A stretch of DNA of 64,000 nucleotides from Patescibacteria group bacterium. Lineage in GTDB: Bacteria; Patescibacteriota; UBA1384; CAJBMM01. The stretch is taken from contig JBAZWC010000002.1 of the NCBI GenBank assembly GCA_041660565.1, positions 217,836-281,835 on the forward strand, given 5' to 3'. The notes beneath the pieces are model-generated. The model ran no database searches and was not told the DNA's origin. It saw nothing but the letters and a program-made list of their open reading frames with translations. This document shows positions 6,406 through 35,804 of the stretch, one piece after another. Positions within the stretch are counted from its first letter, which is position 1; every line of letters begins with the position of its first letter. A program made the translations under genes and the position numbers.

Positions 6406-6410
6406 GAAGA

Positions 6411-10988: not shown

Positions 10989-11016
10989 GGGGCGGACTTG
11001 TAAGTCCGCCCTTTTG
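10989..11016 (+). terminator. rho-independent terminator of pnp (GGGGCGGAC-ttgtaa-GTCCGCCC followed by a TTTT run)
   Basis: A perfect 9-bp GC stem and T-run lie 27 nt after the pnp stop. A second hairpin (11028-11060) sits on the other side and serves the convergent minus-strand ORF. Confidence 0.6.
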
Positions 11017-11082: not shown

Positions 11083-11421
11083 TCACTGTTCGCCGTAACC
11101 CCTGTACCACGCTTCCAGCTCGTAAGATCGGTCAGGCGCTTTTCTGCCTGTATGGGGTGTACGACGGGGCGCAAAAACGCTGGACGTCATGCCTGCCAGC
11201 AGTTCTTTAAAGGTAATCGCGTGCGCCATGTAGCCACAAGCCCGGAGTCCTTCTATCGAATTGAACTCAACGACTACGCGCACAAGCCCTTCGACTTGGG
11301 CGATTGGCGTCTCGGTGAGCTGGCATAGACCAGCGTCCCGAGCGTAGCGAAACGCCAGTATATCCGGCGATTTGCACCCTACTACGGTTTCTTGACGCAG
11401 AGGTACGCACATGGCCATCAC
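11083..11421 (-). CDS. hypothetical protein encoded in a GC-rich insert, 30 nt downstream of xerC
   Basis: 112-aa ORF in a roughly 60% GC segment (11040-11430) embedded in a roughly 45% GC context. No family is recognisable. It is co-directional with xerC. Confidence 0.3.
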   Translation of the reverse strand: MMAMCVPLRQETVVGCKSPDILAFRYARDAGLCQLTETPIAQVEGLVRVVVEFNSIEGLRACGYMAHAITFKELLAGMTSSVFAPRRTPHTGRKAPDRSYELEAWYRGYGEQ

Positions 11422-11451: not shown

Positions 11452-12426
11452 TTATTCAGTTTTGTCAACAGGAGGTTCTTCTACTTTTTTATCATGAAAA
11501 GCAGTGTGGATGTCTTTTAAGTGTTGATTTGTTACGTGCGTGTAAATTTGCGTGGTATTCAACGAGGCGTGCCCCAACATCGCTTGAACATCGCGAATGT
11601 TGGCGCCATTCATCAACAAATCGGTGGCAAACGAGTGGCGCAAAGTATGCGGAGTGACAGTTTTAACAATGCCAGCCGCTTTGGCATATCCCTGCACAAT
11701 TCGTTCAATTGATCGGTCAGATAAGCGTAAGCTGCGGTCAAGTTGTTGCTCGGCCTCTGGGATCGGATCTTTTAACCGAATAAACACGGCGTTATCATCG
11801 TCGGTGCGGCTAATTAAATACTGGCGCAGATACTCGGTAGCCACCGCCGACAAAAAAACAATCCGTTCTTTGCGTCCCTTGCCAATCACCGCAAATTCGC
11901 CGCGTTCCAAATTAACCTGATCTCGATTAAGTGATGCAATTTCGGACACTCGCAATCCGGTCGAGAATAAGGTATGCAGCAATGCCAAGTCACGCGCACC
12001 TTTAATCGTTTTGGGGTTAGGCATCTGCAACAATCGCACCAATTCTTCGTGATCCAAAAACTGAATCTGGCGCGAGTCGTTCGCCGGTAAATCAATCTTC
12101 TCTGCTGCCATCGCCACCACATTTTTGCGATTTAAATAGCGCAAAAGTGATCGCAGCGCAATTAAATGATAGTTTTGAGTTGATTTTGACAGCGGTTCGT
12201 CTTTTTGATTTTTGAGACGATTCAAATACTGGCGAAATCGCAGCACCAAATCATCGGTAATTTGATCAACCGAGGTAACGTTTTGCTCTTCTGCCCAAGC
12301 GTTAAATCGGTTTAAATAATGCGAATAGCTCTCGATCGTGTGTAATGATCGATTTTTTTCAAGCTCCAAATGCTGCATAAAAGCATCAGTTGCGTCGGAT
12401 AATGTCATAAAAAAAGTATAACACAA
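11452..12426 (-). CDS. xerC: tyrosine site-specific recombinase XerC/XerD family
   Basis: N-terminal SAM-like domain and C-terminal catalytic motifs (R..HTLRHSFATDLL..GANIRDVQAMLGHASLNTTQIYTHV). Confidence 0.85.
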   Translation of the reverse strand: MCYTFFMTLSDATDAFMQHLELEKNRSLHTIESYSHYLNRFNAWAEEQNVTSVDQITDDLVLRFRQYLNRLKNQKDEPLSKSTQNYHLIALRSLLRYLNRKNVVAMAAEKIDLPANDSRQIQFLDHEELVRLLQMPNPKTIKGARDLALLHTLFSTGLRVSEIASLNRDQVNLERGEFAVIGKGRKERIVFLSAVATEYLRQYLISRTDDDNAVFIRLKDPIPEAEQQLDRSLRLSDRSIERIVQGYAKAAGIVKTVTPHTLRHSFATDLLMNGANIRDVQAMLGHASLNTTQIYTHVTNQHLKDIHTAFHDKKVEEPPVDKTE

Positions 12427-12439
12427 AGAGACGAATTTT

Positions 12440-12610
12440 AAATTTTCAATTTTTAATTAGATGCTTAGCATCGAAATCACTCGCGGTACGCTCGAGATTA
12501 TCAAATGAAAGGTAGCCAATTTTAAATGACTAAATAAGGAGCCGCCTTTTTAAAATTTAATCATTCGGTACTTATTCATTTAAAATTTAGCCTTTAAAAT
12601 TTAAAATTTT
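12440..12610. repeat. intergenic repeat, family B, copy 1 (about 170 bp)
   Basis: Near-identical to 18738-18910 and, in its 3' 125 bp, to 25185-25312. It starts with (TTTTAAT)n, has an internal imperfect inverted repeat TTTAAATGACTAAATAAGGA...CTTATTCATTTAAA, and ends TTTAGCCTTTAAAATTTAAAATT. Confidence 0.7.
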
Positions 12611-12666: not shown

Positions 12667-15600
12667 ATGCAGGTAAAATTTAATCTCCGGCAATTTGGCG
12701 TATCTTGCGCTTTACTTATGATAGTTATAAGCGCTGGTTTGATGTCGGCTAGGCCGGCTTTTGCAGGAACCAGCTTGAATGTACAAGCATCTTTAAGCGC
12801 TGATAACACTGTAACCGTAAAATTTGACCAATATGACAACGCTCAAACGTATAACATTTCTAGAGTAAGTGGCACTACCGTTGCTCCAATTAGCTCGGTT
12901 ATCGGATCTGTTGCATTTAGTGGCGGGGTCACAACTACCTCCCAAACACTATCTGGCGAGCCGGTGGGAGTGTGGGAATATCAAGTGGAAGCGTTTAGTA
13001 GCTCAACTGCCAGTGGTACGGCACTTTCCTCGCAAAAGTCATCTGCAATTACTATTTCGGCTGCGGCTGCTTCTGGCGACACAACAACCCCTGTGGATGA
13101 GAACACGGTTATACTTAATCCAACTACTATGATGGCGGATTGTGTAGCGGCCAAGAAAACTGTTGACGATGACAAGAGCAAAGCCAGTAGTTCTATCTCT
13201 AGGAGAAGTTTATACGATGCCATCAGTGATAACAGCGTTAAGGCAGTTTTCAAATGGACACTCAGCTTAGTTAATATTCTGGTACTAATCTTTCTGCTTG
13301 TGGTATCATTCTCCAGTATTTTACGTGTGCAAATAGACACCTATGCGGTCAAAAAAGTGCTGCCCGCGCTAATTATGGGCATCGTTTTGGCCAACTTTAG
13401 CTGGCTAATTTGTCGATTCTTAATCGAGGTCTCTACATTAATAACCAACTCACTGTTGGCACAGTATGGTGGCGCTGGCGAGCTGTTTAGAAAAATTGCC
13501 GAGAGCTACGGACTAAGAGACACCTTATGCACCACCGCTACCACCGGCAACTTTGCCAGCGGGCTGTTAGGCGTATTTGTTGGCACGGTTTTGGTGGTAG
13601 TAGCCGCTATCTTAATGCTAACGCTGTATATGCTACTGGTGGCACGCATCTGGATTATCACCTTGCTAATGATTTTAGCGCCGTTAGCGTTCATCTCGCT
13701 CGGCTTCCCGCTAACATCAAGCTATTTCAAAAAATGGTGGACGATGTTCTTTAACTGGGTGTTTATGACGCCGGCCGCATTCCTTATCCTCATATTAGCG
13801 GAAAGGGTGTCGATTATTGGCAAAGAAGCAAACTTAACTCGATATATTTTGACCACGGCGTTGTTGTACTTTGCCATTCAAGTGCCGTTTAAGATGGGGG
13901 GCGATTGGATGCGCCAGTGGGGTGGCTACGTCTCGCAATTCAAGAAAAAAGCGTATGAAGGAACTGCTAAAGCTGTCGATCATTCAACCAAAGGTACGCG
14001 TGAAGATTTAGCTAATCGGGCTAGGTTGATGTATCGCAATAGTGCGGTTGGGCAAGATGTCGGCCGCCGCATTGCCGGTATCCAAATGCGGCGAGACTTG
14101 CGCAAAAAAGAGCTGGATAACTTAAAAGCAAGAGATCGCGGAAATGCCCGTGATGCCGCGGTTAAGTCAAGAAAGCTGACTGCCGCTCAAGCGGCTCTAC
14201 AGGACGCCCAGCAAGTTGGTCCAAAGCGTAAAGAAATTGAAGACAATATGTTGAAGGCTTTCGGTGGAAATACAGCAAAATTAGAACAATTTAAATCTCT
14301 TACTGAAGACGAAAAGTCGCGTCGAGTAAACATGGCCCGATCTACCGATACGTCTCTGACAAAGAAGGAGCGGGACAAAGCGGCAAGAGCAGTAGCTAGT
14401 TTGAGTACAAAAATTGCCAGCTCGAGATCTAGGTTTTCTGCAGCTGAACTAGCTGACATCGACAAGCAGATGCCAGGGAATCTTGACGCACACAAAGCTG
14501 ATCAAGACAGAATAAAAGCCGCACAAGACCGTTTAGCGGCAACACAGAACAAAGTGTACGGTCGATCGTACGAAGCTGCTGAGAGCGCTCTAGAGTTAAT
14601 GAAAGGCGAGGAAGGCTCGAAAAAAACAAACCAAGCCGCCTTTGACGAAACAGAGCTTGGCAGGCAGCATATGAACTGGATGACTGAGTATGCGTTCAAG
14701 ATGGCCAAAATGGATGCCAGAACTCAGATTGCGAAAGAGCAACAATCAGGCCGATGGCTTAAGGCTTTTGGGGTTGATCCAAATAAACCCACCGCCGAAT
14801 TAATTCAATTGGCTAAGGAAATCGGGGCAGATCCAAAGGAGCTTGGCAAGGCAATCAGCGACAACTTTACACTGCGATCAGATGCAGCGGCGCTTAAAGA
14901 TCGCAACGCAAAAACAGACGAAGATAATTTGGTTAAGGTGGCTCGAGAACAACTGACTCTGCATAATACTGTGTATAAGGTTAGAAATTTACGCGATCAA
15001 ATGACTCAAACGCAAGGTTCGCTAGACGCTGCAATTATTTCTGGTGATAAAATTCAAGAGAAGCTTTTGACTGAGATGCTTAAAGTATTAAAATCACAAC
15101 ATGACGCTGCCGTTGTAGATCACGACTCGACAATTGATAAATTACGTACCGACAGTAACAACAATTTTTCTGCGCTTGCACCGCATCTTCAGCAGGTAAT
15201 GACTGAGGGCGCTGGTGGGACAATCGCAGGCGCTAAAGAACTTGATAGTGGTACTGTGTTGAGATTGGTTGGTCGTGTAAAGGCGTGGGAAACGGGTAAA
15301 GCCGCAAATAGATTAGATGATACTGGAATATTGGCTCTGTCGCAAAAGTTACAAGCCGGTAGCCCCGAGGATGAAATTACGCAGAAGCAGGTTGAGGCGT
15401 ATCGTGCAGGAAATTTTGCCGCCATAGATGATGATATTTCTAAGCGCGCGGATATAGTTTCAAAAATAAATATTTGGACAGCGGCTGTAAGTAAGACCCT
15501 GGGCGGAACTACAAATCCTGATAGCGATATGGTTTCTGAGATGAGCCTTAACCAACTCATAACACCGGAGACAAGGCACTCAGTGGCGCTTCAAATAGCA

Positions 15601-15786
15601 CGTTCTGCAAAAGGCAGAGGATTCTTTAAAGATAATGGAATTGATGTGGAAACTGCATCACCTGATTGGTATACTACCCCAGCTGCAATGAATGTTATGA
15701 ACAAGGCACTGACCAATAATAAGAGTCGTAGATTAGTAATTGGTGCGCTTAAACAAGTATTTACCACCCAAGGGAAAGGTAACTAA
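12667..15786 (+). CDS. giant membrane protein with a signal peptide, a Ser/Thr-rich exodomain, a VirB6/TrbL-like polytopic core and a roughly 580-aa charged coiled-coil tail
   Basis: The signal peptide is MQVKFNLRQFGVSCALLMIVISAGLMSARPAFAG. At least six TM helices fall between about aa 200 and 450 (ILAPLAFISLGFP...). A long K/R/E/D/Q-rich heptad-like C-terminus follows. The gene is first in an operon with the next two ORFs (3-nt and 12-nt gaps). Confidence 0.4.
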   Translation: MQVKFNLRQFGVSCALLMIVISAGLMSARPAFAGTSLNVQASLSADNTVTVKFDQYDNAQTYNISRVSGTTVAPISSVIGSVAFSGGVTTTSQTLSGEPVGVWEYQVEAFSSSTASGTALSSQKSSAITISAAAASGDTTTPVDENTVILNPTTMMADCVAAKKTVDDDKSKASSSISRRSLYDAISDNSVKAVFKWTLSLVNILVLIFLLVVSFSSILRVQIDTYAVKKVLPALIMGIVLANFSWLICRFLIEVSTLITNSLLAQYGGAGELFRKIAESYGLRDTLCTTATTGNFASGLLGVFVGTVLVVVAAILMLTLYMLLVARIWIITLLMILAPLAFISLGFPLTSSYFKKWWTMFFNWVFMTPAAFLILILAERVSIIGKEANLTRYILTTALLYFAIQVPFKMGGDWMRQWGGYVSQFKKKAYEGTAKAVDHSTKGTREDLANRARLMYRNSAVGQDVGRRIAGIQMRRDLRKKELDNLKARDRGNARDAAVKSRKLTAAQAALQDAQQVGPKRKEIEDNMLKAFGGNTAKLEQFKSLTEDEKSRRVNMARSTDTSLTKKERDKAARAVASLSTKIASSRSRFSAAELADIDKQMPGNLDAHKADQDRIKAAQDRLAATQNKVYGRSYEAAESALELMKGEEGSKKTNQAAFDETELGRQHMNWMTEYAFKMAKMDARTQIAKEQQSGRWLKAFGVDPNKPTAELIQLAKEIGADPKELGKAISDNFTLRSDAAALKDRNAKTDEDNLVKVAREQLTLHNTVYKVRNLRDQMTQTQGSLDAAIISGDKIQEKLLTEMLKVLKSQHDAAVVDHDSTIDKLRTDSNNNFSALAPHLQQVMTEGAGGTIAGAKELDSGTVLRLVGRVKAWETGKAANRLDDTGILALSQKLQAGSPEDEITQKQVEAYRAGNFAAIDDDISKRADIVSKINIWTAAVSKTLGGTTNPDSDMVSEMSLNQLITPETRHSVALQIARSAKGRGFFKDNGIDVETASPDWYTTPAAMNVMNKALTNNKSRRLVIGALKQVFTTQGKGN

Positions 15787-15788
15787 TC

Positions 15789-16634
15789 ATGGCTGATGAA
15801 AATACCACCACAACTCAAAATCTTGATCCGGATGATTATCTACTGGAGCTAGAAACAGATCCGGAAAGCGACTGCTATAAGCTTATTCAAGATCAAAAAT
15901 ACGATCAAATAATGCCGGTGCTGGCACCGCTACCGTTAAAAGTGCAAATTAGGGTTTGCGAGCTGTTGCGCGAAACGTTTATCGATCAAATGCGCCACCT
16001 GATCAACTCTACTCCAGCCGATATCTACCAAAAAATTACCGCTACTATTACTAAGACGAGTGGTGATGATCAGGCAAAACTGGCTCAAATTCGCGACCAC
16101 TATTTTGTGACAATTAGTATGTTGATGACCTTAAAAGCGCCGAGCACACAAAAACGTTTGGTCAAAATTGCCGCTCAAAAATATAACGCAGACACCTCTT
16201 ATCGTCAGATTGACATCGAACAACAGTTGGCCGAAACCATGTTGCGCGCGTTGCCAAATATTGCCGAGACAGAAACAGATTACATTCAAAAAATCGCCGA
16301 ATTTACCGGGGTCGAAATGAGCGATCAGCCGTTTACCGATTTTGTTTCTAAAGCGGTTGATGCGCTTTATTACATCGCTTTGCTAGACGATTTATTGTTG
16401 CTGAAAATTGGAACGCAGACCGGTGATGATAAGATCGACTTGACGGTGTTGCAATCACAGGGAGTGATTGAGTTCGTACGTATGGTGATGATGTTGCGTG
16501 ATCCGTTTTTGCAGGCGTTGTATAGCGAATCTGAGCTGAATACATCAGTTGCTGCGATGCCCGAAATTTCACCCGAGACGGTGAAGCAGACTCCAGCGCC
16601 CGAAACTGAAACAACTAATTATGATATCGTGTAA
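15789..16634 (+). CDS. acidic cytoplasmic hypothetical protein (operon partner of the VirB6-like and PrgI-like genes)
   Basis: The start lies 3 nt after the upstream stop. There are no TM segments and no recognisable domain. Confidence 0.45.
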   Translation: MADENTTTTQNLDPDDYLLELETDPESDCYKLIQDQKYDQIMPVLAPLPLKVQIRVCELLRETFIDQMRHLINSTPADIYQKITATITKTSGDDQAKLAQIRDHYFVTISMLMTLKAPSTQKRLVKIAAQKYNADTSYRQIDIEQQLAETMLRALPNIAETETDYIQKIAEFTGVEMSDQPFTDFVSKAVDALYYIALLDDLLLLKIGTQTGDDKIDLTVLQSQGVIEFVRMVMMLRDPFLQALYSESELNTSVAAMPEISPETVKQTPAPETETTNYDIV

Positions 16635-16645
16635 TTAGAGGAAAT

Positions 16646-17131
16646 ATGCAATACAAAGTGCCGCAAAATATCGATAAAGAGGACGAAATCGTTGGCCCGC
16701 TAACGCTGGTTCAATTTAGCTATTTGGCCATCGCCTTTGCCATTGACTTTTTGGCATTCAAATCTTTGCCATTGGCACTAAGTTTGATCATCATTCTGCC
16801 TCTTTCGGTATTGGCTTTTGCTTTGGCATTTTTGAAGATTCAAGATCGGCCGATGCTGACATTTTTGATGGCGGTGCTGCATTTTTCTCGTGATGATAAA
16901 GCCAGAGTGTGGAGTAAAACATCTGACCGCCCCATTTTGCAGATCGACAAAACGGTAGCGCCGGTGGTAGCTACCGATGCTACACAGCACAAACAGTTCG
17001 ATTCTGCTAAAGCCGAAGCACTGGCCAATGTCATTGACGCACGCGGTCAAGCCCCAGCACCTGCCACGCCCGAGCCGACTAAGATGCCGTTTACAAATGT
17101 AGATCAAAACATCTTGAAAAAGAACGATTAG
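16646..17131 (+). CDS. PrgI-family (VirB3-like) small membrane protein
   Basis: 161 aa. The N-terminus MQYKVPQNIDKEDEIVGPLTLVQFSYLAIAFAIDFLAF, followed by two TM helices, is typical of PrgI-family proteins from Gram-positive/CPR T4SS loci. Confidence 0.5.
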   Translation: MQYKVPQNIDKEDEIVGPLTLVQFSYLAIAFAIDFLAFKSLPLALSLIIILPLSVLAFALAFLKIQDRPMLTFLMAVLHFSRDDKARVWSKTSDRPILQIDKTVAPVVATDATQHKQFDSAKAEALANVIDARGQAPAPATPEPTKMPFTNVDQNILKKND

Positions 17132-17244
17132 GGTCATTGGGGTAGTTAGGGCAGTTGAATCCCCCTAACCGTACCTACCGCCTGACAGTCTCTCAAACAA
17201 TCTTGGCAAAGGGTTTGGCGTTTGTTACGCTACCAAAGTAAAGG

Positions 17245-17932: not shown

Positions 17933-18724
17933 GTGTCTTATTTACAAGCAATCGTTTTAGGATTAGTACAAGGATTAGGTGAGTTTTTGCCTATTTCCAG
18001 CTCGGCTCACCTGGTATTGGTCCCGTATATTTTTGGCTGGACCGCACACACGGATATTTTTGATGTAGCTTTGCACTTGGGCACGCTTTTAGCGGTGGTG
18101 ATCTTTTTTGCCAAAGACATTTGGCGTTTGCTTAAAGCCGGTTTAACTCAGGGCATCAAAACTGTTGATGGCAAGCTATTCTGGCTGATTATGGTGGCTA
18201 CCGTGCCAGCCGGATTGATTGGCTATCAATTTGAAGGCTTTGTTGACGATAAGTTGCGTACCGCTTACTTGGCCATTGCACTGGCGATGGCAATTATGGG
18301 TGTTGTACTATGGCTTGTCGATAAATATGCATCCAAAAAACTGGATGAAAATAAACTAACGTGGGGACAATCAATTTTAATTGGTGTTTCGCAGGCGCTT
18401 GCGTTGTTACCAGGTGTGTCTCGATCTGGTGCCACTATGACCACCGGTTTATTGTTTGGTCTAACCCGAGAATCGGCTGCCCGTTTTTCATTTTTGATGT
18501 CGGTGCCCATTATTGCCGGCGCCGGATTACTTAAATTAACTAAATTGCATGCATCAGACGTTGATGGGCAATTTATCGTTGGAGTGGTTGTGGCGGCAGT
18601 AGTTGGCTATCTAAGCATTCGCTGGTTATTAAATTATTTGAACAAAGGTCGTTTTGATATTTTTGCTTGGTATCGGTTTGGCTTTGCCGCACTTGTGATC
18701 ATCCTTCTTGTCGTCAGACGGTAA
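17933..18724 (+). CDS. uppP: undecaprenyl-diphosphate phosphatase
   Basis: The BacA/UppP N-terminus is LQAIVLGLVQGLGEFLPISSSAHL. A GTG start at 17933 has SD GGAGG 6 nt upstream. The ORF-track start at 17885 is over-extended. Confidence 0.9.
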   Translation: MSYLQAIVLGLVQGLGEFLPISSSAHLVLVPYIFGWTAHTDIFDVALHLGTLLAVVIFFAKDIWRLLKAGLTQGIKTVDGKLFWLIMVATVPAGLIGYQFEGFVDDKLRTAYLAIALAMAIMGVVLWLVDKYASKKLDENKLTWGQSILIGVSQALALLPGVSRSGATMTTGLLFGLTRESAARFSFLMSVPIIAGAGLLKLTKLHASDVDGQFIVGVVVAAVVGYLSIRWLLNYLNKGRFDIFAWYRFGFAALVIILLVVRR

Positions 18725-18737
18725 CCAAGGGTATAAT

Positions 18738-18910
18738 TTCAAATTTTTAATTTTTAATTAGATGTTTAGCATCGAAATCACTCGCGGAACGCTCGAGATT
18801 ATCAAATGAAAAGTTGCCAATTTCTAAATGACTAAATAAAGAACCATTTAAAATTTAATCATTCGGTACTTATTCATTTAAAATTTAGCCTTTAAAATTT
18901 AAAATTCAAA
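18738..18910. repeat. family B, copy 2
   Basis: More than 90% identical to copy 1 by eye. It lies between uppP and dedA. Confidence 0.7.
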
Positions 18911-19530: not shown

Positions 19531-19713
19531 TCTGATTGGATAAATTGGATTTTTTGGTGTGTGGAATTTTTTTGTCATATAGATTCCGGGTCGAGCCCGG
19601 AATGACAAACTCCAAAAACCAGTTGACGTGCTCTTATTTATATGACATACTGCGGCTAACACTCGGGGTACACTCAAGCGCCCCACTGACAACAGAATCC
19701 GGAGGGTGGAACG

Positions 19714-20133
19714 ATGCAAGCTAAGATCGTCCTGATCATCGTGATGGTCTTTCTGGTAGCCATTTGCGGCATGACTGCGCTGGACTACTCGCGTCACACC
19801 GGGGCGTCGTTGCTGGAGATCACAGTTACCGGCGCCGAGATTGAGTCGGTGGGCAATGGCGGTACCGCATCGTCTTTGTCCGCCGACAAGACGGTTGCGC
19901 ACATGGCTTTCGTCGGCGACAGGTGTGTTACCTCACTAGAGGTCAAGCCGAAGGATGACTTAACTACTGAATACCAAGTTCGGATAACGGTGATTGACCA
20001 GTCCGGGCGGAACTCGTCCAGCCGTGACTTCACCATGAAGCCCGAGGACGAAGGGTTCAACCTGGAGGTGCGGGTCTTTCCGCCTGAGCCCGGGCAGATC
20101 CGGATTGTGGTTGCCCCGCCTTCGATCGATTAG
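19714..20133 (+). CDS. GC-rich signal-anchored small secreted protein (hypothetical)
   Basis: 139 aa with an N-terminal hydrophobic anchor (IVLIIVMVFLVAICGMTAL). SD GGAGGG lies 8 nt upstream. The segment is about 60% GC. The stop region overlaps the over-extended ORF-track call of the peptidase. Confidence 0.45.
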   Translation: MQAKIVLIIVMVFLVAICGMTALDYSRHTGASLLEITVTGAEIESVGNGGTASSLSADKTVAHMAFVGDRCVTSLEVKPKDDLTTEYQVRITVIDQSGRNSSSRDFTMKPEDEGFNLEVRVFPPEPGQIRIVVAPPSID

Positions 20134-20203
20134 TGCGAGCAACGGGCTCGGGTGGCAATGCGCCGCCCGGGCCTATCTTTTTGCCCTTAAATCTGCTTTA
20201 ATT

Positions 20204-21469
20204 ATGTTAATGAAATACGAACTAAATACATTATCAAATGGCGTCAAAGTTTTACAGATCCCAGTCGCCGGCGTCAAATCTGTCACTGCTCTGGTGCTTT
20301 TTGGCGTTGGTTCGCGCTATGAAAATCAACCGATAAACGGTTTGTCACACTTTTTGGAACACTTATTTTTTAAGGGCTCCAAAAAACGCCCCACCGCCGA
20401 GCAGATTTCGATTGCGGTAGATGAAGTGGGCGGCGAAATGAACGCTTTTACCAGCAAAGAATACACCGGTTATTACATTAAAGCGGCATCGCAGTTTGGC
20501 GAGCTGGCGTTAGACGTTTTGTCTGATATGTTGCTTAACCCGCTGTTAAAAGAGGATGAAATCGATCGCGAACGTGGGGTGATTATCGAAGAAATTAAGA
20601 TGTACGAAGATCAGCCAATGATGTATGTGGGTGAGCTTTTCGAAAATCAACTTTTTGGCGATACCCCGCTAGGTTGGGACACTATTGGCACTCGCCAGAA
20701 CATTAAGGCGATGCAGAAAAAGCAGATTAACGATTATCGTCAAAACTTTTACACTGCGGATAATATGTTAGTGGTAGTGGCCGGTGATATCGCGCAAACT
20801 ACGCCGCATTTGGAAAAGTACTTTGCTCAGTTTTCCGGATCGCGCCATCAAAATTATCAGAAATGGGCGCTTGAATCGCGTTCAGCATATAAAATGCACG
20901 TCAAACCAACCGAACAGACACATTTGTGGCTAGGTTTTTTGGGCTTGCCTGCCAATCATCCCGACAAATACGTGTTAAAGGTGATTTCGGCCATTTTGGG
21001 TGGGGGGATGAGTTCGCGGTTGTTCCTCTCGGTGCGCGAGCGCCAAGGTTTGGCATATTATGTTCGTGCCGCATCTGAGCACTACCTAGACAGTGGTTAC
21101 TTGGTTGCCTCGGCCGGCGTAGCGACAGAAAAAGTGGAACAGGCAGTAAAGGCGATTTTGCTTGAGTTCCAAAAATTGCGCGATGAAAAAGTTAGCGCGA
21201 CCGAATTAAACAAGGTAAAACAATATCTTAAAGGTAAATTGTTGTTAAAAATTGAACAGACCGATGAGTTGGCTGGAATGCTTGGAATGCAACAGTTATT
21301 GCAGGGTGAAATTAAAACGCCTGAAGAGATAAATCAGTTAATCGACGCGGTGACATTGGATGATATTTCTCGCGTTGCCAAGCAAATTATCACACAGCAA
21401 AATCTTTGTGGCGCGTTTATCTCGTCTGAGGATTTCAGTAGTTGGCTAGACATTAATCTAAAAATATAA
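20204..21469 (+). CDS. M16-family (insulinase/pitrilysin-like) zinc peptidase
   Basis: HxxEH motif SHFLEHLFFKG and the M16 architecture. The plausible start MLMKYEL is at 20204. The ORF-track start at 20105 overlaps the upstream gene. Confidence 0.85.
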   Translation: MLMKYELNTLSNGVKVLQIPVAGVKSVTALVLFGVGSRYENQPINGLSHFLEHLFFKGSKKRPTAEQISIAVDEVGGEMNAFTSKEYTGYYIKAASQFGELALDVLSDMLLNPLLKEDEIDRERGVIIEEIKMYEDQPMMYVGELFENQLFGDTPLGWDTIGTRQNIKAMQKKQINDYRQNFYTADNMLVVVAGDIAQTTPHLEKYFAQFSGSRHQNYQKWALESRSAYKMHVKPTEQTHLWLGFLGLPANHPDKYVLKVISAILGGGMSSRLFLSVRERQGLAYYVRAASEHYLDSGYLVASAGVATEKVEQAVKAILLEFQKLRDEKVSATELNKVKQYLKGKLLLKIEQTDELAGMLGMQQLLQGEIKTPEEINQLIDAVTLDDISRVAKQIITQQNLCGAFISSEDFSSWLDINLKI

Positions 21470-21547
21470 CCAATTAATCCAATTAGATTTTATTATATAG
21501 ATTCCAAAGTCGAGCCCGGAATGACAAAAAAATATAAGGAGCAGAAT

Positions 21548-22141
21548 ATGCAACATCCAAAAGAAGAGCGAACGGTCGTTTTAGTAAAGCCCGATGGGGT
21601 TATGCGCGGTTTGGTGGGCGAGGTTTTAACTCGTTTTGAAAAACGCGGTTTGAAGATTTTAGGTTTGAAAATGGTATATCCGTCTCGTGAACACGCTGCG
21701 GCACACTATTCGGGCTCCGAAGAGTGGTTGCGTGGGATGGGCAATAAGACGCTTGAGGCGTTTGCCAAATATGGCATAGACGTAACTGCAGAAATGGGCA
21801 CTGCCGACGCATTGGAAATTGGTAAAAAGGTGCAGCAATGGAACGTTGACTACTTGGCAATGGGTCCGGTAGTGGCAATCGTTCTGCAGGGTATGCACGC
21901 TATCACCACCGTGCGCAAAATTGTGGGAAGTACTTTGCCGGTGTTAGCCGATCCTGGTACCATCAGGGGCGATTTTTCGGTTGATTCAAATGTTGCCGGC
22001 AATTTTGATAAGCGCGCGATTCACAATATCGTTCACGCCTCTGGTGATCCATCCGAAGCCGGGCACGAAATTGCGCACTGGTTCAAAGAGGAAGAACTAA
22101 TTAAATATTCTCGCGCCGACGAACAGATAATGTTTGGATAA
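21548..22141 (+). CDS. ndk: nucleoside diphosphate kinase (with an internal insertion of about 30 aa)
   Basis: VVLVKPDGVMRGLVGEVLTRFEKRGLKI and the NIVHASGDPSEAGHEIAHWF active-site region. The ATG at 21548 has SD AAGGAG upstream. The ORF-track start at 21521 is over-extended. Confidence 0.9.
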   Translation: MQHPKEERTVVLVKPDGVMRGLVGEVLTRFEKRGLKILGLKMVYPSREHAAAHYSGSEEWLRGMGNKTLEAFAKYGIDVTAEMGTADALEIGKKVQQWNVDYLAMGPVVAIVLQGMHAITTVRKIVGSTLPVLADPGTIRGDFSVDSNVAGNFDKRAIHNIVHASGDPSEAGHEIAHWFKEEELIKYSRADEQIMFG

Positions 22142-22184
22142 AAAAATAACCCAACGTGGGTTAAGACGTGTGATTAAAAAGAAG

Positions 22185-22215
22185 AACGGTCGGGCACAGA
22201 GTGCGCCCGACCGTT
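22185..22215. terminator. bidirectional hairpin terminator between ndk and the convergent GC-rich gene
   Basis: aacggtcgggcac-agagt-gcgcccgaccgtt forms a 12-13 bp GC-rich stem between convergent genes. Confidence 0.5.
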
Positions 22216-22250
22216 GTCGTGCTTGGTGCTAGAGAGGCCGGCACCCGGGG

Positions 22251-22751
22251 CTAGACCGTGTATGCCCGGTTGCCGCCGTGCAGCGGTTCGTGTCGCCCGA
22301 TGTTCGCGTTGACGTCGCTCAGGTAGAAGGTATGGTTTCCGCCGTTACAAGGTGCCCGCAGAGCGGGCGCGGGACGAACGCCGGATCTGGCTGTCGCGTA
22401 GATGCCGTGGCCGTCGATGGCCATGCTGTTCGTCGCGTTGATCGTCGCCCAATGGTTGTACGTGTCGCCGATGTTCACCTTGACGCCGTTGGCCGGCGGG
22501 CCGGTGTCGATCGCGTTGAGGCCGGTGACCGGGGCCGTGTCGAAGTCGCCCGTCGCCGTCGTGCAGATGTCAGTCGCTGTCCATAGATTGTACGTCGAAT
22601 CGGCCGTCGCCAAAGTCGTCAAGGTGACGACGGTCGGCGGCGAGCTGTCGACGGCGAACGCGGTGTCGTTCCGCACCGTTGCCGTAGCGGGCAACGTGAA
22701 CAGGACGAGCATCGCGAACACCGCCGTCACGAGAGCGAGCACATTCCTCAT
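22251..22751 (-). CDS. GC-rich secreted hypothetical protein (signal peptide; Thr/Asn/Gly-rich)
   Basis: 166 aa. The signal peptide is MRNVLALVTAVFAMLVLFTLPATA. A strong SD AAGGAGGG lies 8 nt upstream on the minus strand. The segment is about 65% GC. The plus-strand ORFs overlapping it are judged antisense artefacts. Confidence 0.5.
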   Translation of the reverse strand: MRNVLALVTAVFAMLVLFTLPATATVRNDTAFAVDSSPPTVVTLTTLATADSTYNLWTATDICTTATGDFDTAPVTGLNAIDTGPPANGVKVNIGDTYNHWATINATNSMAIDGHGIYATARSGVRPAPALRAPCNGGNHTFYLSDVNANIGRHEPLHGGNRAYTV

Positions 22752-22933
22752 GGGCTTGTCCCTCCTTGGGGTGGGGTGTTCGACTTGTCTTGTACTAGGA
22801 TATTTGCATTATAGCGCAAACGCTACAGTGTGTCAAGAGTTTTAAAGAGTGTTTTTGGAGGTAAAATTAGCAATTTAATGCTTACGCCGTGACGAAACGG
22901 AGATATTTGGATAAAAACATTCCCCCCGCGGCA

Positions 22934-23161
22934 TCATTTTGCCTCGGGGGTGGGGTTCGTAAACAGCTCTTGGTTGCAGTAGGCGCAGCGTGCTCTGCGG
23001 TCTTGTCTAGAGAGGTGGATTCGAGTGCCGTCGCGCAATTGAAGGTGATATCGCCGTGGCCCACAGTGACCGCATTTCGACATATTTGGGGCAATGGTGT
23101 AGAACTGATCCCAGAAACTCCTTTCTCTGACAATGATAATCTCTGGATCGATTTCAGGCAT
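22934..23161 (-). CDS. small zinc-ribbon protein (CxxC...CxxC), GC-rich
   Basis: 75 aa with CGHCG and CAYC motifs. SD GGAGG lies 7 nt upstream of the ATG. It is adjacent to the 22251-22751 gene in the same GC-rich island. Confidence 0.45.
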   Translation of the reverse strand: MPEIDPEIIIVRERSFWDQFYTIAPNMSKCGHCGPRRYHLQLRDGTRIHLSRQDRRARCAYCNQELFTNPTPEAK

Positions 23162-23271
23162 CCGATTTCCTCCGCGGAGTGGTCATTACTAAGTATAGAA
23201 TAGGACGATTTAGCAAATTGTCAAATTCCAATACAAAAATCCGGAAATTAATCCAAGGGAGATTATTTTAC

Positions 23272-23439
23272 CTGTCATCTCGACCCTGTGAGCGTTGTCG
23301 AACTGTTGGCTTCCTGCCCTCTTAGGGCGTAAGCCCGGAGGGAGAGATCCCGCCAGTAGCTAGATCAATACGGGATTTCTCCATCAAGCGGGCGGACATA
23401 TGAGTCCGCCCCTACACCAAGAGATTGTCGAAATGACAA
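23272..23439. repeat. family A element, copy 3 (GC-rich interior)
   Basis: Termini are CCTGTCATCTCGACCCTGTGAGCGTTGTCGAACTG and GTCGAAATGACAA. The interior retains GGAGAGATCCC...GGGATTTCTCC and carries a GGGCGGAC-atatga-GTCCGCCC hairpin. Confidence 0.55.
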
Positions 23440-23483: not shown

Positions 23484-24611
23484 ATGAGTAACCTAGTTTG
23501 GCCGATTATTATTTCTACGCTAGTTAGCTTTGTGCTGACCTATTTGGTTAAGCAATATGCGTTAAAACACCATTTAGCCATGCCAATTCGTGCTCGCGAT
23601 GTCCACACCAAACAGATTCCGCGCCTTGGCGGCTTGGCAATTTTTGGCGCATTTTTAATTGTGGTGATAATTTATCAAGTTGCGAGCCAGAATAATTTTT
23701 CCGGTTTTGGCTTTCCGTTTGCCATTTTTGGCATTAGTATTGATAAACGATTGTTAGCGGTTCTGATTGCGTCTGTCGTTTTAGTCGCGACGATGGCTTA
23801 CGACGATATTAAAGGTCTAAAACCATATCAAAAATTATCGGCGCAGATTTTGGTGGCGTTAATCATTATTGCCGGCGGAATTGGCATCCGTTATATCAAT
23901 AATCCGTTTGGCGGGCTGGAATTTAGGCTTGACCAGTGGCAAATTCCCGTTCAAATTGGGGCAGCCACTTATCATTTTGTGGTGCTGGCTGATTTGCTTG
24001 CCGTGGCGTGGTTATTATTGTTGATGAATGTGGTTAATTTTAGTGATGGCGTGGATGGCCTAGCCGGCACTATGACTGCGATTGCGTTACTTGTGCTGAT
24101 GCTTTTAAGCTTACGCGACCCTGTTAATCAACCGGCCACCGCGTTGTTGTCATCGATTGGTTTTGGCGCAGTGCTCGGGTTTTTGTTTTGGAACTGGCCA
24201 CCTGCCAAAATTTTTATGGGAGACAGCGGGGCGATGTTTTTGGGGTTCCTAATTGGGGTGATTGGGCTGATTGCCGGTGGAAAGATTGCCACCATTTTAG
24301 TGGTTTTGGCCTTGCCAATATTGGATGCGCTGCTGGTGATTTTCACTCGCCTAATTCACGGTTATAACCCGCTTACTCATCCCGATCAGAGCCATTTGCA
24401 TCATCGATTTTTGCACGCAAACTTTTCGGCTCGCCAAACATTAACCGTGCTGGGTGTTTTTTGCGCCACCTTTGGCATAATCGCTTTGAAATATACCGGG
24501 TTGGTTAAAGCGGAAATGTTTGGTATAGCTGTAATCGCACTGGTGATTATAATCATCGCGTTGAGTGCAAAGAGCCGTAATGATAATTCGAAATTGTCAT
24601 CTGCCAATTAG
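23484..24611 (+). CDS. MraY/WecA-family polyprenyl-phosphate N-acetylhexosamine-1-phosphate transferase (glycosyltransferase family 4)
   Basis: Polytopic membrane protein with the family motifs (VVNFSDGVDGLAG, GDSGAMFLGF). The start MSNLVWPI is at 23484, downstream of the repeat element. The ORF-track start at 23400 translates the repeat. Confidence 0.75.
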   Translation: MSNLVWPIIISTLVSFVLTYLVKQYALKHHLAMPIRARDVHTKQIPRLGGLAIFGAFLIVVIIYQVASQNNFSGFGFPFAIFGISIDKRLLAVLIASVVLVATMAYDDIKGLKPYQKLSAQILVALIIIAGGIGIRYINNPFGGLEFRLDQWQIPVQIGAATYHFVVLADLLAVAWLLLLMNVVNFSDGVDGLAGTMTAIALLVLMLLSLRDPVNQPATALLSSIGFGAVLGFLFWNWPPAKIFMGDSGAMFLGFLIGVIGLIAGGKIATILVVLALPILDALLVIFTRLIHGYNPLTHPDQSHLHHRFLHANFSARQTLTVLGVFCATFGIIALKYTGLVKAEMFGIAVIALVIIIIALSAKSRNDNSKLSSAN

Positions 24612-24671: not shown

Positions 24672-25178
24672 ATGTTAGACATTCATTTTGATGGACAGCA
24701 AAAGGACGAAGAAGTGGTGGCGATGTTTCATCGTAGTATTTGGGTTTATTTTAAGTGGATCGTAGCTATTATCATCTGCCTGATGTTCTCAATTGTTGTA
24801 CTGATTTTAAGTAATTTCCATACTCCGGGATTGTATATCGCCGGTTTGCTATTTTTTGCTGTGGTTTATCTGATTGTTCGGACATGGTACATTTGGTCGA
24901 ACAATTTATTCATCGTTACTAATATGCGGGTGATTGGTCTGGTGCAAAACAGTGTTTTTGAGCGTCAGCTAAAAGAATCTTACCTTGATAGTATTTGTCA
25001 GGTGACGGCGGTGGTTAAGGGTGTGATGCCGAATATGTTTGGCTATGGGCAAGTGCTGGTGCAAACAGAGGAAGTGATGATTTTGGAAGGAATAGAGACG
25101 CCGTTTGATGCCAAACATGCTATTTTTATGGCTATTGATCAATCAAAAAGAGCTAACCCGAATCTTAAAAGAGACTAG
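24672..25178 (+). CDS. membrane protein with a bacterial PH-like (bPH/YdbT-like) domain
   Basis: Two TM helices precede a domain resembling bPH_2 (VTNMRVIGLVQNSVFERQLKESYLDSI). Confidence 0.4.
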   Translation: MLDIHFDGQQKDEEVVAMFHRSIWVYFKWIVAIIICLMFSIVVLILSNFHTPGLYIAGLLFFAVVYLIVRTWYIWSNNLFIVTNMRVIGLVQNSVFERQLKESYLDSICQVTAVVKGVMPNMFGYGQVLVQTEEVMILEGIETPFDAKHAIFMAIDQSKRANPNLKRD

Positions 25179-25184
25179 GAAACG

Positions 25185-25312
25185 AATTTTTAATTTTTAA
25201 TTTTTAATTTCAAATGAAAGGAAGCCAATTTTTAAATGACTAAATAAGGAACCATTTAAAATTTAATCATTCGGTACTTATTCATTTAAAATTTAGCCTT
25301 TAAAATTTATAA
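25185..25312. repeat. family B, copy 3 (lacks the roughly 45-bp GCATCGAAATCACTCGCGG...GAGATTATC module)
   Basis: It abuts the dnaE stop codon and is convergent with the bPH-membrane gene. Confidence 0.65.
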
Positions 25313-28300
25313 TTATCTAACCTCGGTCTGGTGTGGGCCAACTAATCGCGCAATTTGATCTAACAAGCTGAAGTCAATTTTTACTGTCAGCCTTGGTTTA
25401 ATTTCTTTTTGGTCCGGTAGATGCAAGATGAAGGCATTTACGCCGTTATGTAGTGACAAAACGTGTTTTAGCTCGGACAAAGTTTTGGTACTGGTGTCTT
25501 CGGGAATGGTGATATGCAAAATAGCGGATTCGGGAAACATCTGCACCGGTTTTTCACTCGCTCCGGTTGTGGGTGCTGCGGCGCGTCCGTTTTGGCTTTT
25601 GCCGTTACCGTTTTTATATGACGTAAGTGCGGGCAAATCTATACCATCCACTGACCGCGCCTCGGTGATATCCCACGCCGCGTTGACTAAAATTTTTAAG
25701 CTGCCATCTTTATCGTTCACCTTGCCATCTGCCACTATAATGCGGTCATTTTGCCATAAATCCTTGGTTTCGGCATATAAATTGGGGAAGATGATTAGCT
25801 CAATATTGGTAGTAGCGTCTTCCACTTTCACAAACGCCATTGCTTGGTTGGATTTGGTGATAATCGATTTGACACTGGTGATCATACCGATAATGCGCAC
25901 CGATTTATCTACCATATTTTGTTTAATTTCACCGATTTTAATGATGTCGTGCCCCGAAATTGAGTTCAAATCTGACATTGGGTGCTCTGAAAGGTAAATG
26001 CCAAGCAGGTCTTTTTCCCATTGCATAATTTGTTGTTTGGTGGCGGGAGCGGTTGGGGTTAAATTAAGCAAAACCATCTCTTCGTTTTCGTCTGAGCCAA
26101 ACAACCCAATTTGGCTGTGATGATCTTTGTGAATACCGGTGGCGTACTTTAGAATTGCTTCGATATTAACAAACAAGGTGTTTCGGTCTGAAAAACTATC
26201 CAAAGCGCCCGCTTGCGTCAAGCTCTCCAATGTTTTTCGGTTGATTACTTTTCCATCAGTCCTTTTGATAAAATCAGTCAAACTAGTAAACAAACCATTT
26301 TTTTTGCGCTCTTTGACGATCACCTCTGCCACGCCGTGCCCCACATTCTTAATTGCTCCTAGCCCAAACCGAATATTCTCGTTTTTATGTTGATCGTTCG
26401 GGACTACGCCAAAATCCGGAAAAGACTCGTTGATGTCCGGAGGCAGCACCTTAATGCCCATTCGATTGCACTCGTTTAGGGCGAACGATACTTTTTCAAT
26501 GTCACGGCTTTGCTCCGAGGTTAGCCATGCCGCCATAAACTGGCTGGGATAGTGCATTTTAAGATACGCGGTTTGGTACGCAATCATCCCGTAAGAGGTG
26601 GCGTGCGCTTTATTAAATCCGTAACGGGCGAACGGCTCTACGAAGTCGAATAGCTTTTCGGCCAAGCTTTTGGTGATGCCGTTTTGCACCCCTTTTTCAA
26701 TCCATTTATGCCGCTGTTCCAATAATAATTCTTTGATTTTTTTACCAATCGCTTTGCGCAGAACATCGGCTTCGCCGTATGAAAATCCGCACAAATCGCG
26801 AGCAATGCGCAAAATTTGTTCCTGATAAACGGCAATACCGTATGTTTCTTTTAGAATTGGCTCGAGCTTGGGATGAAGATAGGTGACTTTTTTGGTGCCA
26901 TGTTTGCCGGCAATATAATCTGGAATTAATTCGATTGGTCCGGGACGATATAGCGCCACCATCGCAATAATATCGTTGATGACGGTTGGTTTTAGCTCTT
27001 TTAAGTACCGTTTCATCCCATCTGACTCTAATTGGAACACCCCAGACGACTCGCCGCGAGAAAGCAGCTGGTACGTTTCTTTGTCATCAAGCGGTATTTC
27101 GGCGGTAATTATATCAACATCTCGAGTGGCTTTGATGATCTCCAGCGCCCGCTCAATGATGGACAGGTTGGCTAGACCCAAGAAGTCCATTTTAACCAAA
27201 CCAACTGCCTCTAACTCTTTCATGGCAAATTGAGTCACGATGCCAGACTGCTCTTTATCGCCGATACGTTGCACCGGTACATAGTTGGTGATGTCTTTGT
27301 CCGAGATAACTACGCCAGCGGCGTGCACCGAGGCGTGGCGAGCCACTCCTTCTACCTTGCCCGCCAGATCAATCAGCTTTTTAATTGCGGGCTCGTTGTT
27401 GTAGCGATATTTTAACTCAACGTTGGTTTCTAGCGCGATATCCAGTGTTGACCCGAGCGGGATCAGTTTAGAAACCGCATCTACTTCGCCATACGGCATG
27501 CCCAAAACTCGCCCCACGTCGCGGATGCTGTTTTTGGCTGCAATCGTACCAAAGGTAATAATCTGTGCCACCTTGTCGGCGCCGTATTTTTCGGTGACGT
27601 ATGCGATTAATTCGCCGCGTCTGGTATCGGCGATATCCAAGTCAACATCTGGCCAGTCAATACGTTCTTGGTTTAGAAATCGTTCAAAGATTAGACCGTA
27701 CTTTAACGGATCGATGTCGGTAATGTTGATTAAATACGAGACTAATGAGCCAGCGGCTGATCCACGAGTGTTGGTAAAAATGCCCATTTCCTTGGCTTTG
27801 TTGTTGTAGTCTGCCACCATCAGCATATAGCTGGCAAAGCCGGTTTTGCCGATGACATCAAGCTCATATTCAAGTCGGGTTTTGTACTCTTCATCTAAAT
27901 TGGACGGGTATTCCGAGCGTTCGCTGGGTTGATTAGTCTTGACCACTTTAGCCCATAATCCGGCAATACATCTCTCGCGCAGATAATCATCCGGTTTTGC
28001 CCCACCCGGTATTGGAAACGCCGGAAAGATATATTGACCGGTCTTGATTTCGAATTGGCACATATCGGCAATTTTGCGGGTGTTTGATATTGCCTCTGGC
28101 AAATCTGCAAAATTGGCGGACATTTCATCACTCGTTAGCATTGATATATCAATGTAGCGACCATCTTGTTTCATTGACATTCGATTTTGATCTGCCATAA
28201 ACTTGCCGGTTTGAATACACAGCAATGCATCTTGCGCCTCGGCATCATCATGCTCTAAATAATGGACATCATTTGTGGCCACTAGCCCGAGCTGGTGTTT

Positions 28301-28892: not shown

Positions 28893-28985
28893 AGGTTTCT
28901 TTCGTTCGGGGGATTAGGGACATTAGGGAAGTTGGGGATTTTGGGAGTGCCTTTGGCTCCCCCAATGCCCCTAATCACCCCAATC
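28893..28985. repeat. family C, copy 3 (between divergent dnaE and the methyltransferase gene)
   Basis: GGGGGATTAGGGACATTAGGGAAGTTGGGGATTTTGGGAG...CTCCCCCAATGCCCCTAATCACCCCAATCTCCCTAAT. Confidence 0.55.
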
Positions 28986-29013
28986 TCCCTAATTTGTGTT
29001 ATAATTATTCATA

Positions 29014-35784: not shown

Positions 35785-35804
35785 GCGTGTGGGCGCCGGC
35801 ACAA

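Follow-up and report, generated by a model that had tools for sequence, protein, structure and literature searches.

Which elements fill the spacer between ndk, the gene of nucleoside-diphosphate kinase (NDK), and the glycosyltransferase family 4 (GT4) gene downstream of it in a Patescibacteria group bacterium, and how did they arrive there? The spacer lies in a 64,000-nucleotide stretch of DNA (the window; contig JBAZWC010000002.1 of assembly GCA_041660565.1, positions 217,836 to 281,835), for which the original prediction had proposed a GC-rich two-gene island encoding a secreted protein and a small zinc-ribbon protein. In our reading, the 1.34 kb of lineage-specific DNA in the spacer comprises three separate pieces, namely a 773-bp cassette, a gene for a protein of 75 amino acids (aa), and a repeat resembling a miniature inverted-repeat transposable element (MITE). 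The cassette would represent the horizontal acquisition of a single gene, which encodes a secreted ORFan protein of 166 aa. We assign this reading a probability of about 60%. The locus of the 166-aa gene is a lineage-specific gene acquisition and no new system.

The GC-rich cassette and its gene

The GC anomaly between ndk and the GT4 gene is real, but it is narrower than the 1 kb at about 65% GC described earlier. The region 22150–23200 has only 57.2% GC, and the value of 65.3% is limited to 591 bp (22185–22775), against a background of 45%. Among all 600-bp segments of the 64 kb, 22201–22800 has the highest GC content (64.5%, z = 4.2). Inside 22150–23200, two promoter segments have 34–39% GC and the region of the 75-aa gene has 51.5% GC. 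The cassette contains or is bordered by the following features.

22251–22751, minus strand: 166-aa ORFan gene, coding for a pre-protein with a Sec-type signal peptide
22808–22836, minus strand: sigma-70 promoter TTGACA-17-TATAAT, matching the consensus at 12 of 12 positions, in AT-rich DNA
22759–22766, minus strand: Shine-Dalgarno sequence AAGGAGGG, whose GGAGG core ends 9 nt before the ATG of the 166-aa gene
22185–22215, minus strand: main intrinsic terminator of the 166-aa gene, a 14-bp GC-rich stem with a 3-nt loop, then UUCUUCUUUUUAAU
22147–22163, minus strand: back-up terminator of the 166-aa gene, TAACCCA-CGT-TGGGTTA then T7 on the minus strand, found in the terminator scan and also in the plus-strand fold
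22099–22147, plus strand: proximal direct-repeat copy, made of the final ~43 nt of ndk and 6 nt more, with the identical core TTTGGATAAAAA at 22133–22144
22872–22920, plus strand: diverged distal counterpart of the 3' end of ndk; core TTTGGATAAAAA at 22906–22917

The 166-aa open reading frame (ORF) has a GC content of 64.5%, distributed over the three codon positions as 0.54/0.53/0.86 (GC1/2/3; GC3 0.856), and the other genes of the window have GC3 values of 0.30–0.55. This GC3 is essentially unameliorated. The strong three-base periodicity points to a coding sequence of high-GC origin and not to a structured RNA. In the proposed course of events, the 591-bp core of the cassette would be unameliorated foreign DNA, and its donor would be an unsampled high-GC lineage.

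The 166-aa gene carries the full minus-strand set of promoter, ribosome-binding site, ATG, signal peptide, stop codon, and terminator, and its expression is predicted on these grounds. The promoter is the only perfect match to TTGACA-N17-TATAAT in the 64 kb on either strand, where 0.02 would be expected. Two textbook Shine-Dalgarno sequences had been claimed for the minus-strand genes, and both are present, AAGGAGGG at 22759–22766 and GGAGG at 23169–23173. The tract that follows the 14-bp stem on the minus strand (22215 to 22185) reads UUCUUCUUUUU, and the 86-nt stretch with the main terminator folds at -35.2 kcal/mol (z = -4.4), a value reached by none of 200 shuffled sequences. The hairpin at 22185–22215 had been called a bidirectional terminator. 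The hairpin itself is confirmed, but the U tract is found on the minus strand only, with no plus-strand listing in the consensus scan, so that the bidirectional function is unsupported. According to the proposed mechanism, the gene would be transcribed on the minus strand from the perfect sigma-70 consensus promoter and translated from the AAGGAGG site, and the two U-tract hairpins would stop the transcript before it runs antisense into ndk. The earlier suggestion that both genes appear expressed agrees with the signals found, from which expression is predicted, although the call of the 75-aa gene is less certain.

The assignment of the coding strand is based on the minus-strand expression signals, the ORF that fills the GC-rich block, the signal peptide, and the gene callers, as the pipelines of NCBI, JGI, and Logan all predict the 166-aa gene. 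In the NCBI record, its product is annotated as a hypothetical protein, on a 374-kb contig of a metagenome-assembled genome labeled 'Patescibacteria group bacterium'. A plus-strand ORF of 147 aa over the same DNA shares its wobble positions with the 166-aa ORF. It begins inside the GC block without a ribosome-binding site and extends into the AT-rich promoter. None of the four alternative ORFs over this DNA, three on the plus strand and one on the minus strand, has an exact sequence on record in the protein collection. Nothing favors the plus-strand ORFs and the signals are all on the minus strand, in line with their previous dismissal as artefacts.

The 166-aa protein shows the canonical features of Sec-type export, with a charged N-region (M-R start), a hydrophobic core (LALVTAVFAMLVLFTL), and small residues at -3 and -1 (A-T-A before TVRN), and the earlier view that it is secreted is retained as a prediction. 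The 12-residue hydropathy peak in the core reaches 2.87. In the single-sequence AlphaFold2 (AF2) model, whose overall predicted local distance difference test (pLDDT) score is 37, a helix at residues 2–19 (pLDDT 74–84) is the only confident part. The pre-protein would be exported by Sec and cut between ...PATA and TVRN, after Ala24, yielding a mature acidic protein of 142 aa (pI 5.5) that is rich in Thr, Ala, Asn, and Gly and contains two cysteines. The composition of the 166-aa protein (Thr 15%, Ala 14.5%, Asn 8.4%) confirms the Thr/Asn-rich character noted before. In addition, it contains a weak internal repeat, AVDSSPP...STYNLW versus AIDTGPP...DTYNHW, whose score was reached in 11 of 500 shuffles. 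The protein is most likely a Sec-exported accessory extracellular protein, as predicted from its signal peptide, and most likely a putative extracellular or cell-surface component acting in contact with, or antagonism of, other cells. It shares the signal peptide, small size, lineage specificity, and absence of a catalytic domain with the Sec-exported accessory proteins of episymbiotic bacteria. It differs from them in having no family membership, anchor motif, or structure, and a similar role is suggested by the export signal.

A word-index search against 5.8 billion proteins returned only the 166-aa protein itself, and searches against metagenome contigs, viral contigs, plasmids, and phages gave zero matches. 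No match to sequences of the PDB was found below E = 0.36, nor any family match in Pfam, NCBIfam, PHROGs, or PADLOC. Four weak matches were obtained by full HMMER searches of 1.84 billion representatives. They are repeat proteins with short low-complexity motifs, and homology was rejected. The pairwise alignments comprise a 26-residue PAPxLxAPC motif and a 41-residue stretch, and the full-sequence HMMER scores are inflated because the same query segment is matched repeatedly. Scans for exact patterns of the promoter, the putative circle junction, and the terminator were negative; the scan of the metagenome collection did not recover this contig either, which that collection probably lacks. The Asn-rich composition led us to consider a target of a diversity-generating retroelement, but there is no pair of template and variable repeats, and no reverse transcriptase occurs among the scanned proteins. 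The 773-bp unit has no terminal inverted repeats and no transposase that would identify it as an insertion sequence or a MITE. For a defense or toxin-antitoxin identity, no PADLOC match and no family match of the 166-aa protein were found.

The repeated ndk end and the gap in related loci

The two conserved genes at the borders of the spacer are as follows.

21548–22141, plus strand: ndk, nucleoside-diphosphate kinase, 197 aa from the NCBI start; Pfam NDK, E = 7e-36; conserved backbone gene
23484–24611, plus strand: WecA-like GT4 gene; Pfam Glycos_transf_4, E = 1.6e-34; best NCBIfam match ECA_wecA; conserved backbone gene

The 3' end of ndk is present twice, at 22099–22147 and 22872–22920, with no further copy in the window. 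The local alignment of the 49-bp repeat has a score of 20, compared with 10.0 ± 1.35 in shuffled sequences, none of which (0/500) reaches it. The last 18 nt of the repeat match at 16 of 18 positions (reached in 2 of 200 shuffles) and include the 12-bp identical core. Read from 22879 in the frame of its own TAA, the distal copy encodes ...RRDETEIFG*, and ndk itself ends with ...RADEQIMFG*. The 773 bp bracketed by the direct repeat comprise exactly the 166-aa gene, its promoter, and its terminators, and leave out the 75-aa gene. When the left half of the proximal copy, formed by the last ndk codons, is joined to the distal right half, the result is AATGTTT-GGATAA-AAACATT, a sequence that folds into a 7-bp hairpin. 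This reconstructed site has perfect 7-bp arms and a 6-bp center holding the ndk stop codon, with the 12-bp core centered on the dyad. The reconstructed empty site reads ...ATAATGTTTGGATAAAAACATTCCCC..., and the predicted circle junction would read ...GGAGATATTTGGATAAAAAAATAACCC....

Perfect hairpins of 14–15 bp are found over the ndk stop at the same position in two related loci, L010 and L017 (z = -5.2 and -4.6), and in L017 the ndk end is also repeated downstream. Both the bracketing repeat of the ndk end and the hairpin restored by joining its halves indicate that the cassette was inserted into the ndk terminator hairpin. In the proposed scheme, the first piece of the spacer would be a single-gene cassette of 773 bp, at about 22145–22917, that entered the small palindromic hairpin ending ndk. 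Two mechanisms fit the insertion, either a staggered-cut duplication that has since drifted or a site-specific recombination with a target copy borne by the element. Similar flanking repeats were searched for around the 75-aa gene, a 139-aa unit and a 144/107-aa unit elsewhere in the window, and a 114-aa unit of related locus L006, and none were found.

Repeat units after ndk also occur in related loci L004 (3211–3461), L006 (6610–6670), L007 (3666–3920), and L017 (2719–2960). Their 3' ends copy the last ndk codons and the stop (ATGTTTAGCTA or GATGTTTTCGTAA). Some of these units can form hairpins, and in L004, L006, and L007 they are ~45–52 bp long. Those of L007 form a tandem array interrupted by an assembly gap. 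The recurrence of the terminal 11-mer of ndk in relatives is not individually significant.

To compare the spacer among relatives, ten related loci were collected via NDK homologues and contig look-ups, with NDK being 70–80% identical in the alignment. A scan of genome contigs with NDK gave only phyla with 40% identity, and the relatives were hence taken from the NDK homologues. The gene order from the M16 peptidase gene to ndk is kept in 10/10 loci, the GT4 gene is present in all eight loci that extend beyond the gap, and the longer loci continue with a small ORF and then dnaE. NDK ends with ...MFG* in the window and with ...MFS* in the relatives. The GT4 gene likely starts with the ATG at 23484 and encodes 375 aa, compared with 364–374 aa in most relatives. 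This gene had been described as mraY-like, but WecA outscores MraY for its product, with both scores below the curated cut-offs. The suggested comparison with Actinomyces, Schaalia, and Arachnia presumed a member of the Saccharibacteria. By NDK, the closest named relatives are Wildermuthbacteria, Spechtbacterales, and Terrybacteria, which we take to be Parcubacteria-type lineages, not Saccharibacteria.

The ndk-GT4 gap measures 1342 bp in the window, counted from the GT4 start at 23484. It measures 18, 47, and 84 bp in three lineages, and two others have gene-free gaps of 251 and 383 bp. Four loci from a single species group share a gap of 641 bp that holds a different minus-strand ORF of 114 aa, which has 55% GC in a 39% GC genome and its own GC hairpin; in one of the four, the gap is longer owing to a repeat array and an assembly gap. 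Another contig shows 761 bp between the two genes, with a minus-strand ORF of 126 aa known by its length and strand. Two further contigs end just past ndk, in repeats or GC-elevated DNA. Short repeat units aside, the gaps that were compared, that of the window included, have no DNA similarity between lineages. None of the ten related loci carries the DNA of the window gap, which agrees with the predicted absence of the insertion from sister strains, and no orthologues were found in the same neighborhood of the relatives. The lineage-specific gap contents and the different inserts in relatives point to the ndk-GT4 gap as an insertion hot spot.

The neighboring 75-aa gene and the weighing of readings

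The remaining pieces of the spacer have the following features.

22934–23161, minus strand: 75-aa ORFan, candidate zinc-ribbon protein with CxxC pairs C30/C33 and C59/C62, pI 8.9; gene call less certain
23169–23173, minus strand: Shine-Dalgarno sequence GGAGG of the 75-aa gene, 7 nt before the ATG
23197–23224, minus strand: promoter-like TTGACA-16-TATTCT of the 75-aa gene, 10 of 12 positions
22923–22950, minus strand: terminator-like hairpin of the 75-aa gene, overlapping the stop codon, then UGUUUUUAU
23272–23439, no strand assigned: 168-bp MITE-like repeat; 13-bp inverted repeats CTGTCATTTCGAC at its ends, GGGCGGAC...GTCCGCCC hairpin inside

The second piece, the four-Cys 75-aa gene, would be an independent unit with a less atypical composition (GC 51.8%, GC3 0.57) and was possibly acquired earlier, and the MITE-like repeat would form the third. 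For the 61-nt stretch around the terminator-like hairpin of this gene, the folding energy is -22.6 kcal/mol (z = -3.0). The protein is on record from the Logan pipeline only, and the consecutive NCBI accession numbers imply no annotated gene between the 166-aa gene and the GT4 gene. The proposed zinc-ribbon identity agrees with two CxxC knuckles at zinc-ribbon spacing, but no curated family scores above its cut-off and no confident fold was obtained. The score of Pfam zf-BED is 19.7 bits, compared with a cut-off of 20.6, and other families score lower. Pfam, NCBIfam, PHROGs, and PADLOC together gave only below-cut-off or weak, unannotated matches. The AF2 model has a pLDDT of 61, Foldseek against the PDB found no match at E ≤ 0.001, and homologue searches found none. 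The 75-aa protein resembles four-Cys zinc-ribbon proteins in being basic and in having two CxxC pairs 25 residues apart. It differs from them in that its Pfam matches are all below the cut-offs, its model is of low confidence, and its gene call is uncertain.

The own promoter and terminator of the 75-aa gene, its GC content of 52% compared with 65%, and its position outside the repeat suggest that it is probably a separate transcription unit and not a partner of the 166-aa gene. It is improbable that the two genes were acquired as one island in which the zinc-ribbon protein regulates or works with the secreted protein. The genes are adjacent on the same strand, both are ORFans absent from relatives, and a second GC-elevated ORFan lies beside a Cys-rich small ORF at 41896–42750. 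The idea of a two-gene island is nevertheless contradicted by the different GC contents, by a promoter and a terminator for each gene, and by the ndk-end repeat enclosing the 166-aa cassette only, and the 75-aa gene is missing from the NCBI annotation. Nor is the suggested recurrence of the pairing at 41896–42750 one of homology: the two proteins there are not similar to the 166-aa and 75-aa proteins, their genes stand in reversed order, and the 144-aa protein has no hydrophobic signal segment. About as poor are the odds that the GC-rich block is a dead foreign fragment fixed by chance, with a non-working 166-aa ORF or with the 147-aa plus-strand ORF as the real gene. This would agree with the lack of a homologue and of a usable fold, and with the tendency of GC-rich DNA to give long ORFs in several frames, where the plus-strand ORF shares the high-GC wobble positions. 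It is opposed by the complete minus-strand gene, which runs from promoter to terminator and whose ORF fills the GC block, and by the plus-strand ORF, which has no ribosome-binding site and reaches into the AT-rich promoter; the plus-strand ORFs are absent from the records of all pipelines. An assembly chimera, with high-GC reads of another organism joined to the contig, could account for the abrupt GC change in a metagenome-assembled source. A separately assembled Logan contig is, however, 100% identical over 19580–23296 and crosses both GC junctions, which makes a chimera very unlikely. Moreover, the junctions share only 12 identical bases, judged too few to mislead an assembler, the complete gene has AT-rich promoter DNA on one side, and the repeat restores a hairpin seen in relatives. 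A structured non-coding RNA that is GC-rich in an AT-rich genome has a negligible chance. The block is GC-rich and intergenic and has its own promoter and terminator, but the excess of GC3 over GC1 and GC2 is that of a coding sequence, and no Rfam match was found at the gathering threshold or at E ≤ 1, except one chance match of 12.8 bits.

The cassette could also be an integrase-less mobile unit that enters the ndk-stop palindrome by site-specific recombination, with a recombinase acting in trans, like a Xer-dependent dif module, an integrative mobile element exploiting Xer (IMEX), or a decayed cis-mobilizable element (CIME). We regard this as unlikely. The diverged ndk-like 31 bp would then be the own target copy of the element, and the repeat, besides its 12-bp identical core, is ~94% identical over the last 16 columns and ~65% further upstream. 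The core is centered on the dyad of the reconstructed 7-6-7 palindrome, the 773 bp contain no recombinase, other inserts occupy the same gap in sister lineages, and the terminal ndk motif recurs downstream in L004, L006, L007, and L017. The window encodes a single tyrosine recombinase, at 11452–12426 (~10 kb from the cassette). It is conserved in relatives, and its best-scoring families are XerC/XerD (236 bits, under the equivalog cut-offs), but nothing points to a link between this gene and the ndk-stop site. Dif-like sites have two roughly 11-bp arms around a 6-bp center. The arms of the reconstructed site are perfect over 7 bp and match at 8/11 positions when extended around the 6-bp center, and by eye the site is unlike canonical dif. 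By analogy, the cassette may be compared with IMEX, pdif modules, and CIMEs, with which it shares the lack of an own recombinase, the target-copying direct repeats, the palindromic target with a 6-bp center, and a Xer-like gene elsewhere. It differs from them in its short arms, in a site that is not at a skew switch, and in being a single copy with no excision evidence. There is no second integration site, the pattern scans gave no circular junction or empty site, and similar flanking repeats are absent around the other cassettes of the window. None of the recurrences in relatives is significant on its own, and hairpin units resembling repetitive extragenic palindromic (REP) elements explain them equally well.

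We therefore return to the single-gene acquisition with its secreted ORFan. Several points weigh against it. Composition is unable to separate the 166-aa frame from the 147-aa plus-strand frame, because their wobble positions are shared, and the expression of the gene is predicted from sequence signals. AT-rich DNA (39% GC) makes up the promoter and the ends of the cassette, which does not fit a single direct transfer from a high-GC genome and suggests an intermediate vehicle or local evolution of the promoter. No identifiable donor or homologue in another lineage was found in protein, metagenome, viral, plasmid, and phage collections, and the foreign origin is hence argued from composition and the absence from relatives. 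The extracellular role is predicted from the signal peptide, since the structure model (pLDDT 37) is unusable. Lastly, the repeat copies are about 28% diverged outside the core, which fits either an older duplication or an ndk-end copy borne by the element.

The cassette resembles strain-specific genomic islets at hot spots of horizontal transfer in its atypical composition, its absence at a conserved syntenic site, and its ORFan content, and the ndk gap resembles such hot spots in holding different inserts across sister lineages. Horizontal transfer into Patescibacteria is documented, with recent cross-phylum cases reported to be rare and islands of 2.7–45 kb (PMC12455944). The cassette, with 0.77 kb and one gene, is far below this range, and no donor was found for it. 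Given that horizontal transfer and islands are already known in Patescibacteria (PMC12455944), the cassette is ordinary in kind. Only its clean insertion signature and a possible cassette-type vehicle go beyond an ordinary islet. Like integron gene cassettes, it is a discrete unit of less than 1 kb with a single ORF beside a repeat that resembles a recombination site. In contrast to them, it has its own strong promoter, stands alone instead of in an array, and has no integron integrase or attI adjacent. An attC site is expected to have imperfect arms and extrahelical bases, and the repeat and fold searches showed on the 3' side of the 166-aa ORF only the hairpin with its perfect 14-bp stem and 3-nt loop, which is by eye not attC-like.

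At face value, the locus is one more ORFan islet. Recent cross-phylum gene flow into Patescibacteria is reported to be uncommon and difficult to detect (PMC12455944), and the locus would be an unusually clean case of it. The inserted gene keeps its high GC content, the insertion point can be reconstructed to the base, the consensus promoter predicts strong expression, and the product is predicted to be exported. In an organism expected to live attached to other cells, secreted proteins specific to a strain are candidate factors in partner recognition or antagonism, and the donor of the 166-aa gene, if found, could indicate the physical partner of the lineage. If the bracketing repeat does reflect site-specific recombination, a very small cassette-type vehicle would exist in these genomes. 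It is doubtful that the 773-bp unit belongs to a class of integrase-less, self-expressing single-gene cassettes that enter palindromic terminators at gene ends via a host Xer-like recombinase and ferry genes of secreted proteins from high-GC neighbors, possibly the host organism. This idea derives from the other GC-rich, self-contained ORFan units with signal segments in the window (139 aa; 227 aa and 211 aa) and from the GC-elevated inserts at the ndk site of sister lineages.

Other repeats and inserts of the window

The MITE-like repeat next to the 75-aa gene corresponds to the family A repeat that had been noted as a flank of the GC-rich region, and its CTGTCATTTCGAC motif has 9 matches in the window compared with 1.5 expected. 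The family measures ~150–170 bp, with paired copies at 2472–2624, 5284–5445, and 23272–23439 and a lone end at 8336–8348. In related locus L010, 5635–5665, right after ndk at the contig end, is apparently part of the same terminal repeat. A GC hairpin, GGGGCGGAC-N6-GTCCGCCC, occurs in three copies in the window (10989–11012, 23389–23412, and 35005–35028; 0 expected). Each copy is located at the edge of a GC-elevated insert, and one of them lies inside the MITE-like element beside the 166-aa locus.

A looser pattern recurs in the window, in which GC3 outliers encode small proteins with signal segments. A self-contained GC-rich unit (19623–20174) between the gene of a VTT-domain protein and the M16 peptidase gene contains a 139-aa ORFan (19714–20133) with a GC3 of 0.74, a strongly hydrophobic N-terminus, and a GGAGGG site. 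The unit has a promoter-like site at 19623–19651 and a terminator with a 13-bp stem at 20144–20174. The VTT-M16 gap measures 32–193 bp in L006, L010, and L017, which marks the unit as an insert relative to these loci, and no flanking direct repeat was found. A GC-rich island of 3.5 kb (35000–38500, 55–62% GC) encodes paralogous signal-bearing proteins of 227 and 211 aa (35101–36594, GC3 0.75), and the same 56-nt hairpin repeat follows each paralogue (35789–35844 and 36603–36658). This island also holds tRNA-Gln (36732–36806) and the gene of a FliA/WhiG-like sigma factor of 522 aa, which is extended by ~270 aa at its C-terminus and whose sigma domain is 30–38% identical to phage sigma factors.

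The pair at 41896–42750 is GC-elevated (53–55%) and consists of an ORFan of 144 aa that lacks a signal segment and of a small Cys-rich ORF, which encodes 107 aa from a TTG or 85 aa from an internal ATG and has several CxxC-type pairs. Between the polynucleotide phosphorylase (PNPase) gene and the Xer-like recombinase gene, a minus-strand ORF of 112 aa (11083–11421, 57% GC) has no family match and no signal segment, and the gap between these two genes measures 169 bp in L006 and 489 bp in the window. The region 12667–17131, between the Xer-like recombinase gene and the PAP2 gene, encodes proteins of 1039 aa (with a signal-like N-terminus), 281 aa, and 161 aa (of the PrgI family). These genes, which L006 lacks at this position, may be the remnant of a conjugation or type IV secretion module.

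Three intergenic repeat copies of ~140–190 bp (12423–12608, 18724–18906, and 25174–25314) are 70–94% identical over a 105-nt part. They start with an AT-rich stretch of 7-nt period (GAATTTTAAATTTTCAATTTTTAATT) and have no Rfam match at the gathering threshold. In addition, intergenic G-rich repeats with a 9-nt period, of the type TTAGGGnnn, are found at 6407–6490, 17128–17161, 28905–28992, and 47387–47471, and some of them form inverted pairs across tens of kilobases.

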